From IMG/VR virus record IMGVR_UViG_3300035208_003515: DNA of 64,000 nucleotides. One strand, given 5' to 3'. This document shows positions 706 through 63,958 of the stretch, piece by piece. Within the stretch, counting starts at the first letter, position 1. Every line of letters begins with the position of its first letter. The notes beneath the pieces are model-generated. The model worked only from the letters and a program-made list of their open reading frames with translations. It did no database searches and had not been told where the DNA came from. This DNA is from an uncultured virus (IMG/VR IMGVR_UViG_3300035208_003515). Taxonomy: Duplodnaviria; Heunggongvirae; Uroviricota; Caudoviricetes. Made by a program: the position numbers and the translations under genes.

Positions 706-734
706 TTGACAACTTACCTTATATTATATATTAT
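706..734 (+). promoter_or_regulatory. sigma70 promoter (rightward)
   Basis: TTGACA-17-TATTAT, divergent from the 609-637 promoter. Confidence 0.75.
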
Positions 735-17600: not shown

Positions 17601-18524
17601 TCTGACTTTATATCAAGGATGAGCAACATTCAACAATTCCTGCCTTTCCTTCGATTCAATGTAGTCTGCCGTTACAGCTATTAAGATACCAAAATCCTCT
17701 GGCATATGTGAGAAGAATAAACCAAATTTAGGGTCAATCTTTCTTGCTCGTGCGATAATAATAGGAACATCCTGTTCTGTTAATTTCATAAATCCCTCCT
17801 AATTGTCTTTTCTGCTTTTATATCAAGGATTAACAGCATGGCGCATACCTTTCCAATTTTGCAACAATGCGTTCTTTATTTCTAAGCCAGTTCCTTATTT
17901 GATTTACTGAGATATGGGAGTACCACCTGGAAATCTGGTCAATGCTCATACCGCTATCATAACATACTAAGACATTTTGGATTATGTCACTTTTAAAGAT
18001 CAACCCTTTTTCTTTCGGCTTCAACTCATGTATGCAATCATTGAAAGGGCAATTTATGGTACAGTAAGATTGAGTAAAAGTCCCATTCCTTTCTGACAAA
18101 TAGGTGGTTACTTCTTGGCATCCCTTATGTTGTATATAGCCATTGATTGTAGCTTCACAACATCCTTCTACCATTAATGGCCTCCTTAACTAAATATTAG
18201 CGGTTCACCCAGAGCAGAAAGCAACTCCATGTCTTTAGCCAACATGACAAGCTGTTTCTTATCGTAGTCATCGTCCCAGTTTTCTACGAGTTCCAGTATC
18301 CGCTTAGACAGTATTCCACAGGTATTAGAATCAATTTCACCTTCACAATCACTGTGATCTAAGAACGGAATGATGGGGTCTTTGAAACTATCCCAGGATT
18401 TATTACCACCAAAGCCCTGCATTTCACATAAACGGATACCGATGTCATTTGCCAAGCGGTCACGCATCCTATTGAAACCACTGTATGACCAATGTGCATT
18501 TGAGCCTATGAAATCTAATCCCAC
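14641..18524 (-). other. Second array of small hypothetical ORFs, several with TM helices
   Basis: 14641-15078, 15078-15308, 15305-15598, 15598-16092, 16274-16534, 16488-16739, 16736-16930, 17253-17576, 17613-17789 (not in track), 17830-18174, 18186-18524. Confidence 0.7.
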
Positions 18525-18540
18525 ATTGCCTCCTTTTTTA

Positions 18541-18833
18541 CTTTAACTACTGAATAGTCCGGAGATATTACACCGCTGGATACACAAGCTCGCTCCGAGG
18601 GCTGAGTCGCTGGCTTTTAAGTCCCCGCAGAGACTACAGATTGGTTACTGCACCCCAGATGTGGCTGCCTCTATCTCGTAGAGCCTGCAAACTCGCTTTT
18701 CACTATTCTGCCGAAACAGAGTCCGAAATAGCCGTGAAGCCTACGGATTCTTTTCGCTACTCAGGTCTGCCACAGGATACGCCGTCTTGCCAACACCAGT
18801 TACTCTTTACTCCGGCCTATTCAGTTGTTAAAG
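18541..18833 (-). ncRNA. Unassigned ~290-nt structured RNA or 5' leader
   Basis: 24-bp terminal stem with 2 mismatches (CTTTAACAACTGAATAGGCCGGAG / CTCCGGACTATTCAGTAGTTAAAG); internal UUCG- and GAGA-containing hairpins; GC-richer than flanks; directly downstream of a promoter. Confidence 0.7.
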
Positions 18834-18850
18834 TTCCTTACTTACTAAGT

Positions 18851-18879
18851 ATAATAAACTAATTATCTGTGTTTGTCAA
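18851..18879 (-). promoter_or_regulatory. sigma70 promoter driving the structured RNA and leftward operon
   Basis: TTGACA-17-TATTAT on minus strand. Confidence 0.75.
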
Positions 18880-18891
18880 GTATCTATCAAT

Positions 18892-18925
18892 AACTATTGA
18901 CACATAATTAAGGTTTAGTTATTAT
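18892..18925 (+). promoter_or_regulatory. sigma70 promoter with AACTA-TTGAC motif
   Basis: AACTA-TTGACA-17-TATTAT. Confidence 0.75.
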
Positions 18926-18951: not shown

Positions 18952-19125
18952 ATGGGAGCAATAGAAAAGCGTGGTAGTATTATACTCTGTACCTGTCAAT
19001 TAGACAGATGCAAGCACCAGTGGGCATCCCGCAGGAAGGTAGATGGTGAACCAGAGAAGCCCATCGTCTGCCCTAAATGCCATAGCCCTTACTGGTATAT
19101 AGAGAAAAAAGAGGTGAAAGAATGA
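18952..19125 (+). CDS. Small zinc-ribbon protein (57 aa)
   Basis: Not in ORF track; AGGAG RBS; C..CKHQW...PIVCPKCHSPYW. Confidence 0.7.
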   Translation: MGAIEKRGSIILCTCQLDRCKHQWASRRKVDGEPEKPIVCPKCHSPYWYIEKKEVKE

Positions 19126-19418
19126 AAACTATTGAAATTACCTTGATGGATGCCAAGATACGTATATTGCGGATAGAGACTGCGGGGGTATTTATGCTGA
19201 TGATGTGCGTGATTATGGTAATTATGCTCAAAGTCGCTCCACTCGAAGGCATTATGCTGATACTTATTGGCATAGCGATAGGGGTTATGGCACTAACTGC
19301 CGTGTCAATCATGGGGATTTCAGTGTTCTGTAAGTCGGAGATCAAAGAACTAAATATATGGAATTGGCCGATCAAAAAATACGTACTCAAAGTGGAGGCT
19401 AAAGATGGCAAAGACTAA
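19122..19418 (+). CDS. Two-TM membrane protein
   Basis: Two hydrophobic segments. Confidence 0.65.
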   Translation: MKTIEITLMDAKIRILRIETAGVFMLMMCVIMVIMLKVAPLEGIMLILIGIAIGVMALTAVSIMGISVFCKSEIKELNIWNWPIKKYVLKVEAKDGKD

Positions 19419-19785
19419 TAAAGAGATTTTAGACGAAATGGATACAAAGTCTGCAAGGGAACATGAAGAGTGGATAAGGAAAGTCACAAAGCACGAAATT
19501 AAATGGATGGCAATTCGGTTTTTAATTGGCGTAGCCAATGGTATATTTTGTGGTGGTATTGTAGCACTGCTCACTATCATACTCATTAACACATATGTTG
19601 AGATAGCGAAGATACTCGGTGCAACCAATTGGCTATTGGTAAGTGTGCTTGTTGTAGGATTGCTTTGCATAGCCAAACTGATGATTCTTTATTTCGGAAG
19701 CAAATTTCAACTCATCAACTATGATGCTAAAACACCATTATTCATAGATAAAGTAGACAAAAAAACGGAGGCTAAAGATGAATAA
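19405..19785 (+). CDS. Two-TM membrane protein
   Basis: Two hydrophobic segments; GGAGG RBS. Confidence 0.65.
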   Translation: MAKTNKEILDEMDTKSAREHEEWIRKVTKHEIKWMAIRFLIGVANGIFCGGIVALLTIILINTYVEIAKILGATNWLLVSVLVVGLLCIAKLMILYFGSKFQLINYDAKTPLFIDKVDKKTEAKDE

Positions 19786-42584: not shown

Positions 42585-44156
42585 ATGAAGTGGATCGCTC
42601 CTACAATTCTATCCCTTTCAATCGGTTTAGCTATTTTATTTCGTGTTGTGTTGCCGTGGGCACAGGTCTTTGGTGGTAGTGTCCTTTTAAACACACCTGA
42701 TGCCTATATTATGGTAAGGTATGCAGACTGCTGGCCTGATATCCCATCTTATGATTACTTTATGGACTTTCCACAAGGTTCTAACGTCTTAATTACAGTA
42801 TGGCCTTCAGCTATTGCTATGTTTGCCCGAATCATCGGTGTGAGTAATATGATCTCGGCTGCGGTTTTACCTCCTATCCTTTTCCTATTTACGTTAATTC
42901 CAGTCTATATAATAGGCCGTACTCTTTTTAATAAGTGGGTAGGTGTAGGCGCTGTGGCGATTTTTTGTCTATTACCAGGGGAGATTCTAAACCGGACAAT
43001 GCTTGGCGCTGCGGATTATCACGCATGGGAGATATTCTTAGTCTCTAATATAATGATGCTGGTCATTATCGCTGCCGAGAATTATAAGCGTCCTATAGAC
43101 CTATTCTTTTACTCTGTCGGAGCTATCGGGTTGTGGGTTCTCTACTGGTATTCATGGGTTGGTTCGGTATGGTTATTATTCGTCCTGGGAGTTTGCTTGA
43201 CAATATGGGTTGTCCTGAATACTCGTAAACCTGTGCTTCTCGGGATGTATATGCTTGGTGGACTTGGGATGCTGGCAGGTGCGCTTTTAATCTCACCTGA
43301 AAGAACGAAGTTTTATGCCCTGCAATTCCTCAATATTTTTACCGTCAACCTTTCTAACGTAGTGACTGAGGAATTTCCGGTGTTCTTTTCGTACGGAAAG
43401 TTCGACCTTAATACAATCTGGTTGTACTTCGGGATTACCTTTTATATCGTCTTGATAGGGTTGGGATGGCTGGTTTACCGTTACTTAAAAGAGAGGAAGC
43501 CGGTTGACCTTGTATTCTTGATATGGACGATAGTTTCGCTGGCTATGATGATAGCGAGGCGCAGGTTTGATTATTACTTTGCTATCAATGCTGCCATTAT
43601 CACTTCGTTCGTTCTTGTCTCAGTAGCGCAGTACCTAAGTATAAACAAAGCTACAATAGTTAAGATAGGAGTGGTGGTTGCACTCGCTGTCTGTCTACCA
43701 TTGATACGGGCTGATATCTATATTTCAACAGCAGATACCTATATGCCAAAAGACTGGCAAAATGCCACACAATATCTTAAAGAGGAAAGCGACTACAAAA
43801 CTTACGTAAAAGGCGGTGAATACAAGTTTGGTGTGTTTTCATGGTGGGACTATGGATACTGGATTATTAAAGAGTCCCATTTGCCCACATATTGTCAAGG
43901 ATCAGAGCGGGACTTAGAGGGTAGTATATTGGTATCGACAGAGCCAGAAAAGGCCGTGGCGAGCCTTAGAGCGCTGAAAATGCGGTTCGTGGTAGTGGAC
44001 ACGGATATGCTAAAAGACAAGTGGTATCCAATTTCAAAAGGGAGGGTAGTTGAAAAGGAGAAGACGCTGGTATATAAATTGTGCAATTCAGAAGCAGTGG
44101 AAGGGTTTAAAATGGTTTACGAATCAGGTCAAGTTAAAGTTTACGAGGTAAAATGA
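42585..44156 (+). CDS. aglB: Oligosaccharyltransferase, STT3/AglB/PglB family
   Basis: Multi-TM; TPDAY, ADYH, VVTEE, RRF, WWDYG and DxxMxxxK (DTDMLKDK) motifs. Confidence 0.92.
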   Translation: MKWIAPTILSLSIGLAILFRVVLPWAQVFGGSVLLNTPDAYIMVRYADCWPDIPSYDYFMDFPQGSNVLITVWPSAIAMFARIIGVSNMISAAVLPPILFLFTLIPVYIIGRTLFNKWVGVGAVAIFCLLPGEILNRTMLGAADYHAWEIFLVSNIMMLVIIAAENYKRPIDLFFYSVGAIGLWVLYWYSWVGSVWLLFVLGVCLTIWVVLNTRKPVLLGMYMLGGLGMLAGALLISPERTKFYALQFLNIFTVNLSNVVTEEFPVFFSYGKFDLNTIWLYFGITFYIVLIGLGWLVYRYLKERKPVDLVFLIWTIVSLAMMIARRRFDYYFAINAAIITSFVLVSVAQYLSINKATIVKIGVVVALAVCLPLIRADIYISTADTYMPKDWQNATQYLKEESDYKTYVKGGEYKFGVFSWWDYGYWIIKESHLPTYCQGSERDLEGSILVSTEPEKAVASLRALKMRFVVVDTDMLKDKWYPISKGRVVEKEKTLVYKLCNSEAVEGFKMVYESGQVKVYEVK

Positions 44157-62536: not shown

Positions 62537-62610
62537 GGCTGTGTCAGCTAATGGCAGGCTAGAAGTTTTTCACACTTCCAATCAGAGTTCGATCCTCTGT
62601 ACAGCCACCA
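62537..62610 (+). tRNA. tRNA-Glu(TTC)
   Basis: Cloverleaf; anticodon arm GAAGT-TTTTCAC-ACTTC; CCA. Confidence 0.85.
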
Positions 62611-62611
62611 C

Positions 62612-62686
62612 GGTCTATTGGTGTAGCGGTTTGCATGTTTGCTTGTCAAGCAATTGGTGATGGTTCAACTCCCTCATAGACCGCCA
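62612..62686 (+). tRNA. tRNA-Asp(GTC)
   Basis: Loop TTGTCAA; GCCA end. Confidence 0.85.
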
Positions 62687-62711
62687 AAGAACTTTAATAA
62701 TTTTATATTGT

Positions 62712-62801
62712 GGAGAGTTGGCAGAATATGGTAATTGCGGCGGTTTGCTAAACCGTTGACCCTAAAAAGTCACACTGGTTCAAATCCAGTACTCTCCGCC
62801 A
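62712..62801 (+). tRNA. tRNA-Ser(GCT)
   Basis: Loop TTGCTAA; long variable arm; GCCA. Confidence 0.9.
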
Positions 62802-62805
62802 ATGT

Positions 62806-62882
62806 GGTGGGAATAGTGTTAGTGATTAGCACGAGTGGTTGTGACCCACTTAGGACTGGTTTGAGTCCAGTTTCTCACCCCA
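62806..62882 (+). tRNA. tRNA-His(GTG)
   Basis: Loop TTGTGAC; G-1:C73; CCA. Confidence 0.88.
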
Positions 62883-62886
62883 AAAT

Positions 62887-62963
62887 GGGGCTGTAGCTCA
62901 ATTTGGGAGAGCGACTCGTTTGCACCGAGTAGGTTGGAGGTTCAATTCCTCTCAGTTCCACCA
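62887..62963 (+). tRNA. tRNA-Ala(TGC)
   Basis: G3:U70; loop TTTGCAC. Confidence 0.92.
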
Positions 62964-62964
62964 T

Positions 62965-63042
62965 GCCAGCGTAGCTCAGTCTGGTAGAGCGGTTGTTTTG
63001 TAAACAACGGGTCGCAGGTTCAAATCCATGCCGTTGGCTCCA
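62965..63042 (+). tRNA. tRNA-Thr(TGT)
   Basis: Loop TTTGTAA; CCA. Confidence 0.9.
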
Positions 63043-63098
63043 AAGTATTTTTGCGTTAGTAGCGTGAATATAGCACCTTAATATATGAATAGTTGTTT

Positions 63099-63175
63099 GC
63101 AAGAGTAGCTCAATTGGATAGAGTACGTGCTTGCCAAGTACGAGGTTGCGAGTTCGATGCTCGTCTCTTGCTCCA
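63099..63175 (+). tRNA. tRNA-Gly(GCC)
   Basis: Loop TTGCCAA; U73. Confidence 0.9.
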
Positions 63176-63176
63176 T

Positions 63177-63251
63177 TGAGGGTTCGTCTATAGGAAGGAC
63201 ACTGTGTGGCCGCACAGTAACGGTAGGTTCGAGTCCTATCACCCTCAGCCA
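63177..63251 (+). tRNA. tRNA-like gene, Gln-type body with aberrant anticodon loop
   Basis: Acceptor TGAGGGT/ACCCTCA-GCCA; normal T arm; anticodon stem CTGTG/CACAG closes a 6-nt loop TGGCCG. Confidence 0.7.
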
Positions 63252-63252
63252 T

Positions 63253-63327
63253 ACTTCGGTAGTTCAATGGTAGAACACCTCCCTGTTAAGGAGATAGTTG
63301 AAGGTTCGAGTCCTTCCTGAAGTGCCA
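63253..63327 (+). tRNA. tRNA-Asn(GTT)
   Basis: Loop CTGTTAA; GCCA. Confidence 0.9.
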
Positions 63328-63328
63328 T

Positions 63329-63404
63329 ACTCTCATCGTCTAGTGGTTCAGGATATCACCCTCTCACGGTGAGGACATCGGTTCAAATCCGATTGGGAGT
63401 ACCA
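63329..63404 (+). tRNA. tRNA-Glu(CTC)
   Basis: Loop CTCTCAC. Confidence 0.9.
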
Positions 63405-63417
63405 TATTTGTCTTCAT

Positions 63418-63492
63418 AGGTCAGTCGTTCAGCGGCTAGGACATTTGCCTCCAAAGCAAAATACGAGGGTTCGAGTCCTTCTTGACCTGCCA
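63418..63492 (+). tRNA. tRNA-Trp(CCA)
   Basis: Loop CTCCAAA; GCCA. Confidence 0.9.
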
Positions 63493-63498
63493 AAATAC

Positions 63499-63573
63499 GC
63501 AATCGTAACTCAATGGCAGAGTGCCTGCCTTTTAAGCAGTACGTTGTGGGTTCGACTCCCACCGATTGCACCA
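63499..63573 (+). tRNA. tRNA-Lys(TTT)
   Basis: Loop CTTTTAA. Confidence 0.9.
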
Positions 63574-63574
63574 A

Positions 63575-63650
63575 CGAAGCGAAGTTCAATTGGCAGAACA
63601 TCGGTCTCTTAAACCGAAAGGTATGGGTTCAACTCCCATCGCTTCGACCA
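63575..63650 (+). tRNA. tRNA-Lys(CTT)
   Basis: Loop CTCTTAA. Confidence 0.88.
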
Positions 63651-63651
63651 T

Positions 63652-63726
63652 CAGAGCGAAGTGTTTATGGCAGCACACGTGCCCTGGGAGCACGAAGAGA
63701 GTGTTCGAATCACTCCGCTTTGACCA
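63652..63726 (+). tRNA. tRNA-Pro(TGG)
   Basis: C1:G72, A73; loop CCTGGGA (C33). Confidence 0.85.
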
Positions 63727-63728
63727 AT

Positions 63729-63804
63729 GCCTCTTAAGTGTTTACGGATTACACATCTGCCCTCCAAGCAGAGGTAGAGGGTTCAAGTCCCTCAAGAGGC
63801 TCCA
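63729..63804 (+). tRNA. tRNA-Gly(TCC)
   Basis: Loop CCTCCAA (C33); U73. Confidence 0.85.
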
Positions 63805-63805
63805 A

Positions 63806-63882
63806 AGGCGAGTAGCCCAATTGGCCGTGGCAACCGGCTTAGAACCGGAAATATGCGAGTTCGAATCTCGCCTCGCCTACCA
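63806..63882 (+). tRNA. tRNA-Leu(TAG) with short variable loop
   Basis: Loop CTTAGAA; variable region only AATAT; A73. Confidence 0.75.
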
Positions 63883-63883
63883 T

Positions 63884-63958
63884 ACAGTCGTGGCTTGATA
63901 GGGAAGCAACTCTTTTACACGGAGTGATATGCAGGTTCGAATCCTGCCGACTGTACCA
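63884..63958 (+). tRNA. tRNA-Val(TAC)
   Basis: Loop TTTACAC; ACCA. Confidence 0.88.

Follow-up and report, generated by a model that had tools for sequence, protein, structure and literature searches.

What is the RNA of ~295 nt that heads the leftward early operon in the DNA of an uncultured Caudoviricetes virus (IMG/VR record IMGVR_UViG_3300035208_003515), and why do its two ends resemble those of a host ribosomal RNA (rRNA) precursor? In the 64,000-nt stretch that we analysed from this record (hereafter the window), the RNA occupies positions 18834-18540 of the minus strand, and it belongs to a family of ~300-nt structured RNAs that is new to Rfam 15. Along its 5' strand the family is near-identical to host rRNA leaders for the first 15-22 nt, and a long terminal stalk encloses a conserved body. 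On balance we lean towards reading the cassette as a miniature mimic of a host rRNA gene, one that lies before the early genes, would recruit Nus factors and would probably be cleaved by RNase III at its stalk.

An initial annotation had placed the RNA behind a promoter, and that promoter stands: a sigma-70-type TTGACA-17-TATTAT on the minus strand (18879..18851) agrees with the consensus at 11 of 12 positions, with a predicted start ~7 nt downstream, ~10 nt before the stalk. The promoter block, ACTTGACAAA...TAGTTTATAnTA, is also kept in three of the homologs introduced below (L127, L128 and L132) in the family alignment. The terminal stem of the same annotation is confirmed as the best of 37 inverted repeats in the window, its 25-nt arms (18540-18564 and 18810-18834) forming 23 Watson-Crick pairs (92%) with 245 nt between them, while the next best repeats are 70-86% complementary. 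G+C content is 49% in the RNA stretch against 41% in the window as a whole. As had been annotated, there is no credible open reading frame (ORF): all three sense-strand frames are closed in the window and in the five other members, with 5-8 stops per frame in the window RNA (~18836 to 18538) and 5-12 across the six. A 73-aa antisense frame (18641-18862, plus strand) overlaps the stretch; its differences from L127 are distributed 18/14/17 over codon positions 1/2/3, and for a metagenome variant the 36 differences listed are distributed 14/11/11. Since the substitutions relative to both homologs are spread evenly over the codon positions, we read the stretch as non-coding.

Contigs from four landfill and groundwater DNA runs (including runs X2-X5) were compared with the region. 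A metagenome homolog of the RNA differs from it over 18543-18862 by 48 substitutions and 14 gap positions, and contigs of X4 and X5 that are otherwise unlike the window share only a 45-nt core (18631-18675), with 2 differences. Words from this core retrieved full homologs from metagenome contigs (L127, L128 and L130) and from IMG/VR (L131 and L132), which gives, with the window, six members of one plan; further variants occur as landfill and groundwater contigs only, and further scans of IMG/VR yielded no additional members. Nine other core-word matches (L123-L126, L129, L133, L134, L137 and L138) were judged to be non-members. The RNA is present in one copy in the window and in one copy in each of two phage records. 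Its surroundings are not constant: the first genes downstream differ among members, and proteins are shared in the neighbourhood of the window and L127 only, with even L127 having a different first gene.

Outside these contigs we found no relative of the RNA. INPHARED returned no blastn match to the whole RNA (E<=0.01) or to its core (E<=10), and E. coli genomes held no homolog. Rfam 15, whose scope takes in transfer-messenger RNA (tmRNA), RNase P, signal recognition particle RNA, 6S, riboswitches, ribozymes, GOLLD, ROOL, HEARO and raiA among others, gave no match to the window stretch at the gathering score or at E<=10 and none on the RNA of the five other members at E<=5, while ARAGORN called no tmRNA at the RNA stretch; the annotated lack of a known family is thus borne out. 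We found no report in the literature of whole rRNA-gene packaging around an unrelated conserved RNA in a phage. Over ten thousand candidate phage RNAs have been described (PMC10690425), and the family may be among the unnamed candidates of that set; the numbers of the two IMG/VR contigs are absent from the four supplement files that were searched.

The stalk, P1, forms in all six members with 22-29 pairs, and its duplex energies of -29.6 to -45.8 kcal/mol compare with means of -13 to -20 when the 3' arms are shuffled. Across the family the 5' arm reads ACYUUAAYAAYURAAU and is followed by the conserved blocks and then by the 3' arm; in 5/6 members a ribosome-binding site (RBS) and a start codon come next, the RBS lying 5-20 nt past the stalk. 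The window carries a boxA-like element (GAACUUUAACAA, 18825..18836, minus strand; family consensus G-Y-A-C-Y-U-U-A-A-Y-A-A) 17 nt past the -10 hexamer, and in L131, where no promoter is evident, boxA lies 29 nt past the upstream ORF. The gamma-proteobacterial boxA consensus, GYTCTTTAANA (PMC5725501), specifies 10 positions, and every one of the six members agrees with it at 8-9 of these; in L128 and L130, CTTTAACAATT is identical to the E. coli rrsH leader over 11/11 nt. The annotation had already pointed out a boxA-like CTTTAACAACTGAATA in the 5' strand of the stem, and this observation is strongly borne out by the host comparison, in which the 5' arm matches the boxA leader of Dehalococcoidia 16S and 23S genes.

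The closest named cellular relatives of the phage DnaB are found in metagenome-assembled genomes (MAGs) of Dehalococcoidia and Chloroflexi (34-36% identity), and we therefore examined a Dehalococcoidia MAG, G003. Upstream of its 16S gene stands ttgaca-17-taacat followed by gcaccttaacaactggatag, and gcaccttaacaactggatagcagaagg occurs ~50 nt before the gene. The phage leaders match this 16S leader at 17/18 nt in L127, 12/12 in L131 and 14/15 in the window, and the 3' arm of L131 matches the G003 16S trailer at 15/17. The G003 trailer complements the leader to form a long leader-trailer helix, in which an A·A mismatch lies within one position of that in the phage stalk, and helices of the same kind are found in G065, G126 and G020. 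Judged by these sequence comparisons, the phage stalk is the equivalent of the host pre-16S leader-trailer helix, with the 5' strand of P1 (18810..18834, minus strand) corresponding to the leader strand and its 3' strand (18540..18564, minus strand) to the trailer strand. Leader-trailer helix and boxA both act in pre-16S biogenesis, where the helices are essential for maturation and are substrates of RNase III (PMC10250234).

How widespread this leader is among potential hosts can be seen from a 17-mer, CYTTAACAAYTGRATAG, counted at no more than one mismatch with the reversed pattern as a control. It occurs in 97/151 genomes of the class of G003, Dehalococcoidia (63 exact; control, 3 genomes), in 50/151 genomes of Bacilli (2 exact among the 57 matches listed; control, 29 genomes) and in 21/81 genomes of the class of G004 (0 exact among the 30 matches listed, mostly CTTTGACAA forms; control, 9 genomes). 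Several genomes in the class of G003 have two copies on opposite strands, 1.6-1.8 kb apart. In 8/8 loci checked, the motif precedes 16S by 43-129 nt, and among 20 further sites four are upstream of 23S, two upstream of 16S and one is the 16S trailer itself; over ~22 nt, a 16S leader (L171) is the same as the family consensus. Genomes of this class also encode the factors concerned, with RNase III (5/5), NusB (5/5) and Rho (4/5) scoring over the cut-off, and Dehalococcoidia is the probable host class as judged from these sequence likenesses.

The body is a different matter. Local alignment scores between body and 16S are 18-22, with shuffled means of 20-21; comparison with 16S and its flanks gave nothing beyond leader and trailer, nhmmer finding the leader only; and the stalk encloses no ribosomal RNA, with no SSU, LSU or 5S match. 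Among 401 genomes of the Dehalococcoidia class no homolog of the body was found, only three matches of 19-25 nt (E 0.001-0.009) that we take as chance.

The same rRNA-type boxA (GCACCTTAACAATTGAATA...) also precedes, by ~100 nt, a conserved ORF that starts with MLDW, at L167, L168 and L169 (three contigs of G134), L177 (G020) and L184 (G124). This unit has a conserved block, GTAAATATAGGTTC...TTTTGTGCAAT, before boxA and hairpins after it, with no complement of the trailer; being multi-copy in one MAG, it is probably a prophage or mobile element with Nus-type control. In the class of G004, one genome (G565) holds seven copies of CTGTAACAACTGAATAG (C15:7882-8059, C27:17431-17605 and three other contigs), including two pairs ~160 nt apart on opposite strands, which may be a repeated element with a boxA-like word. 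An 18-mer, CTTTAACAACTGAATAGG, matched two IMG/VR contigs (L001 and L002); these matches were judged to be chance, the inverted repeat being absent and ~2 chance matches being expected on a rough estimate, and in hindsight the two could be boxA-type leaders. Finally, a Dehalococcoidia-class MAG (L183, G145:C106) carries two tandem c-di-GMP-II riboswitch aptamers 400 nt apart, and a cobalamin riboswitch lies in L181.

What does the family conserve inside the stalk? The comparative fold is nested and Y-shaped: above P1, helices P2 and P2b lead to a three-way junction from which two arms emerge (in our numbering, i equals 18837 minus the window position). In the window the 5' strand of P2, CUGG (18796..18799, minus strand; i38-41), pairs with CCAG (18576-18579; i258-261); this helix is seen in the window and L127, and the aligned segments of L128 read CUAGC/GCUAG at the same place. 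P2b closes the junction with its 5' strand GCAAG (18786..18790, minus strand; i47-51) against CUUGU (18584-18588; i249-253). It has 4-5 bp at the same relative place in 6/6 members, written GCAAG/CUUGU, GCGAG/CUUGU, AUAGG/CCUAU, CAAG/CUUG, CCAAG/CUUGG and CCGG/CCGG, and its sequence is swapped compensatorily in L128, L131 and L132. Arm A (18677..18781, minus strand) is closed by helix P3, whose 9 bp are interrupted by an internal loop; inside P3 lie two near-invariant purine-rich strands, GUAGCGAA and AUAGYGAAA, hairpin P5 and variable hairpin P6. In P3, 53/54 cells are paired and 6/9 pairs are changed on both sides, a score that 0/500 shuffles reach, with slid controls giving 22-41% paired; the metagenome variant adds G-C to A-U double changes at 18773+18687 (P3) and 18744+18725 (P5). 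Arm B (18597..18671, minus strand) is the most conserved part, with helix Hd (GAGG/CCUC), a 9/9-nt internal loop (AGCCAYAU / YGAYUCAGY), helix He (CUGG/CCAG) and hairpins Ha (GCRG-UAAYCAAU-CYGU) and Hb (AGUC-variable-GACU). Here 90/90 cells are paired, and two pairs show compensatory change: one in Ha, with A-U and G-C in 3:3 members, and one in Hd, with A-U replaced by U-A in L130.

Two alternative pairings were dropped. UCUGGGGY : RYCC(U)CGGA gave way to Hd and He, which alone fit the double change in L130 and the G-to-A change in L131, and a core pairing CUGGU : RCCAG fails in 4/6 members. The single-sequence optimum of the window RNA (-103.4 kcal/mol, z = -2.86 relative to shuffles) was set aside as well, as it is not what the family conserves. 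The initial annotation, made from one sequence, fares unevenly by this standard. Two of its hairpins, TCTGT-TTCG-GCAGA and AGTCTC-TGCG-GGGACT, sit at conserved hairpin positions, those of P6 and Hb respectively. The bases of CTCTA-CGAGA-TAGAG, by contrast, are paired elsewhere by the family (in the 3' strand of P3 and in Hd), and the pseudoknot that it built from two crossing pairings is not conserved among the homologs: TGTGGC/GCCACA keeps only 2-6 of 6 pairs across members, and CTGAGT/ACTCAG keeps 5-8 of 9 with no compensatory change. As to the covariation that it had asked to see, compensatory changes occur in P2b, P3, P5, Ha and Hd over the six members and the metagenome variant.

How might such a cassette work? 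In rrn operons, boxA nucleates an antitermination complex of Nus factors, and by analogy we infer the following course of events, which we consider somewhat more probable than all else that we weighed. A host-type promoter would start the early leftward transcript, the first ~30 nt of which would be a boxA leader like that before Dehalococcoidia 16S and 23S genes, and the next ~245 nt the Y-shaped body, after which the 3' strand would pair back onto the leader to give the stalk of 22-29 bp. NusB/NusE and their partners would load on boxA and make the polymerase resistant to termination; this complex could hold the 5' strand until the 3' strand emerges, helping the stalk to close, and could protect both the untranslated RNA and the operon that follows from termination. 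Host RNase III would then cut the stalk as it does in pre-rRNA, freeing the body as a discrete stable RNA and leaving an early messenger RNA (mRNA) that starts a few bases before its RBS, while the modified polymerase would continue into the early and replication operon of ~15 kb. Excision is plausible because the terminal stem corresponds to the host leader-trailer processing helix. The annotation's proposal of an excised non-coding RNA or ribozyme, or a processive antitermination element, was in this light probably right in part, the stalk speaking for excision and boxA for antitermination; the ribozyme component finds no support, no ribozyme family of Rfam matching any member. As to the body, loops that never vary and internal loops rich in purines suggest a scaffold to which proteins bind, and it is our guess that this scaffold acts in trans.

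It is also possible, if doubtful, that the RNA goes a step further and behaves as a 'pseudo-rRNA': though unrelated to 16S, it would enter ribosome biogenesis by way of its 16S-type leader, boxA and trailer, be transcribed by the antitermination/chaperone complex that serves rRNA, be excised by RNase III and then act as a stable, phage-specific RNA or ribonucleoprotein through which the assembly of host ribosomes, or translation, is redirected or disabled. If this were true, it would represent a new viral way to exploit rRNA maturation; and since the stalk tracks the host rRNA leader, it would also furnish a sequence-based predictor of hosts for uncultivated phages.

Several observations weigh against the rRNA-gene mimic. 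In 4/6 members boxA ends up within the stalk, and boxA is said to be bound by NusB/NusE as single-stranded RNA; with boxA shut inside the closed stalk, the antitermination complex might not last as far as the operon. A simple scan of the leftward operon revealed no convincing intrinsic terminator, and without terminators to overcome the need for antitermination is not demonstrated. The cassette is evidently dispensable, as a relative in run X3 that is 89% identical in the downstream ORF does without all 309 nt of it (18525-18833), joining 18524 to 18834 through 13 other letters that include an RBS. No RNA run is listed among the public runs with the stretch, the four compared being DNA contigs. 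The fold rests on six full sequences, two pairs of which are close relatives; He, Hb and most of Hd are invariant across members; and for the window RNA the comparative fold reaches -78.5 kcal/mol against the optimum of -103.4, with 34 of its 74 pairs shared. The link to the host is indirect, related UUGACAA leaders occurring in the class of G004, and other phyla may share the UUAACAA leader form.

Among the other explanations, that of a purely cis-acting antitermination leader, in which the whole RNA stays attached and modifies the polymerase directly or with Nus factors, in the manner of the HK022 put RNAs or the EAR element, without giving rise to a separate RNA product, deserves attention, even if we hold it to be unlikely. 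The element is promoter-proximal, it contains boxA and it heads an operon of ~15 kb; furthermore, the MLDW units of Dehalococcoidia MAGs (L167-169, L177 and L184), in which boxA precedes a multi-copy ORF without a trailer strand, indicate that in this group of hosts boxA by itself can stand at the head of an operon. Such a leader would leave unexplained why the stalk reproduces a helix that is known to serve in processing and why a conserved body of 245 nt exceeds what boxA needs; known antitermination RNAs are much smaller, and none was matched in Rfam at E<=10. The body also tells against a decoy, that is, an RNA that a strong promoter supplies early and that soaks up Nus factors, RNase III or pre-16S-binding factors and so lowers host rRNA. 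Several features suit that role: the 5' arm hardly differs from host rRNA leaders, the stalk corresponds to the leader-trailer helix of the host, and the element comes first in transcription from an 11/12 promoter. BoxA and stalk would suffice for it, however, and a conserved, covarying body unlike 16S is more than it accounts for; we regard it as improbable.

The position of the RBS, 5-20 nt past the stalk in 5/6 members, together with highly conserved junction and loop nucleotides, might call to mind a riboswitch-like leader in which a ligand or signal opens or closes the stalk and thereby controls the first early genes. We give this very little weight, as a stalk of 22-29 bp at -30 to -46 kcal/mol is too stable to switch, the Shine-Dalgarno sequence lies outside the structure, no terminator follows the element, no anti-Shine-Dalgarno alternative was seen and no riboswitch family in Rfam matches. 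Hardly more credible is that there is no functional RNA at all and that the stretch is either mobile DNA bounded by inverted repeats or what is left, after decay, of part of an rRNA operon captured from the host. Its terminal repeats do resemble host leader and trailer, and the presence/absence polymorphism of 309 nt in X3 is delimited by the stalk's 5' base; yet that gap is filled by 13 unrelated letters and is not a clean empty site, the internal helices covary, the body is unlike 16S or its flanks, and a single copy is present in each phage record searched. Unlike a miniature inverted-repeat transposable element or DNA transposon, the element has no target-site duplication, given that its flanks (GUAAGGA / AAAAAAGG) differ, and no multiple dispersed copies exist in the window or in the two phage records. 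Least probable of all, in our estimation, is a self-cleaving or otherwise catalytic RNA, for which the conserved core and complex fold would be fitting, whereas no Rfam 15 ribozyme family matches any member and no conserved context of a cleavage site is seen.

With the mimic of an rRNA gene as our preferred reading, the closest parallel is the bacterial pre-16S control region (that of E. coli rrn or its Dehalococcoidia version), in which the parts come in a like order: a sigma-70 promoter, boxA in the first tens of nucleotides and a long flank helix. The phage RNA differs in enclosing ~245 nt unrelated to 16S rather than 1.5 kb, and the phage cassette leads straight into protein-coding early genes. 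Phage early transcripts are known to carry boxA-type signals and RNase III sites, as in lambda nutL/nutR and the T7 early leader, and here too the sequence suggests that the host boxA/Nus system is combined with a double-stranded, RNase III-type site near the start of an early transcript. In contrast to these, the phage signal copies an rRNA leader and not a nut site, and a large conserved body lies inside the stem; relative to lambda nut, no boxB hairpin was identified, ~10 nt preceding boxA and the stalk directly following it, and no search was made for an N-like protein. The intervening sequences of bacterial rRNA genes, which are excised by RNase III at a long stem, are similar in being discrete, variably present inserts with a long stem, presumably removed in the phage case by RNase III as well; unlike them (they are located within rRNA genes and lack a conserved body), the phage element stands at the start of an mRNA, and the body that it encloses is conserved and covaries.

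The family is therefore of interest as a well-defined structured RNA of ~300 nt in phages of a poorly studied host group. Borrowing of boxA by phages is known; here the whole packaging of an rRNA gene (promoter, boxA and leader-trailer helix) appears to have been copied around an unrelated conserved RNA. Should the stalk be processed like pre-rRNA, the cassette would amount to a natural "expression cassette" for stable RNAs and would also offer a handle on how the antitermination complex aids long-range helices. The match of stalk and leader may help to assign hosts to uncultivated phages, and boxA before multi-copy genes in Dehalococcoidia MAGs points to a wider Nus-dependent control by mobile elements of this class.

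Turning to the genes around the RNA, a Shine-Dalgarno sequence, AAGGAGG (18535-18529), lies 5 nt past the stalk, with a GTG start at 18524-18522 (together 18522..18535, minus strand); we fix the start of the first gene at this GTG because its homologs begin MGLDF. This first gene of the leftward operon (18186..18524, minus strand) encodes a widespread small phage protein of 112 aa that does not accompany the RNA in the other members of the RNA family; none of 120 loci of the ORF has the RNA by blastn or nhmmer, and inverted repeats upstream of it are at background level in those loci. Its family (L003-L122 in addition to the window gene) occurs in phages and prophages of many phyla, among them Planctomycetota, Bacillota, Chloroflexota and Actinomycetota and even one archaeal MAG, has an invariant W12, Y14 and H-S-D-C motif, and corresponds to no Pfam family; the largest contig on record for this protein is ~76 kb. 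A neighbouring 274-aa protein has no close relative in IMG/VR.

The element sits in a divergent promoter region. Leftward of it lie ~30 small genes, an HNH endonuclease, a polymerase-like ORF and DnaB, which together make up the early and replication operon of ~15 kb; rightward, small genes give way to very large ORFs that are probably structural. Few window proteins match PHROG or Pfam. The phage is far from deposited phages, as neither megablast with 20 kb of the window nor tblastn with the 535-aa polymerase-like ORF found a match in INPHARED. Three more sigma-70-type promoters reach 11/12, at 18897-18925 (plus strand), back-to-back with the promoter of the RNA, at 706-734 (plus strand) and at 11827-11799 (minus strand), and none of them precedes a boxA-like word or a long leader. 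A second presence/absence polymorphism affects the rightward small genes, where related contigs of runs X2, X3 and X4 skip 620-668 nt within 19097-19767 and have 14-20 other letters instead. Further along, a cluster of tRNA genes (62537-63958) counts 17 genes by ARAGORN and 15 by Rfam, including one at 63177-63251 that is called with a four-base anticodon (ggcc) and with its amino acid undetermined. Finally, a 523-aa ORF (42585-44156, plus strand) weakly resembles STT3/PglB/AglB oligosaccharyltransferase domains, with an E value (8.6e-06) that slightly exceeds the cut-off of Pfam; this would be an unusual function to meet in a phage.

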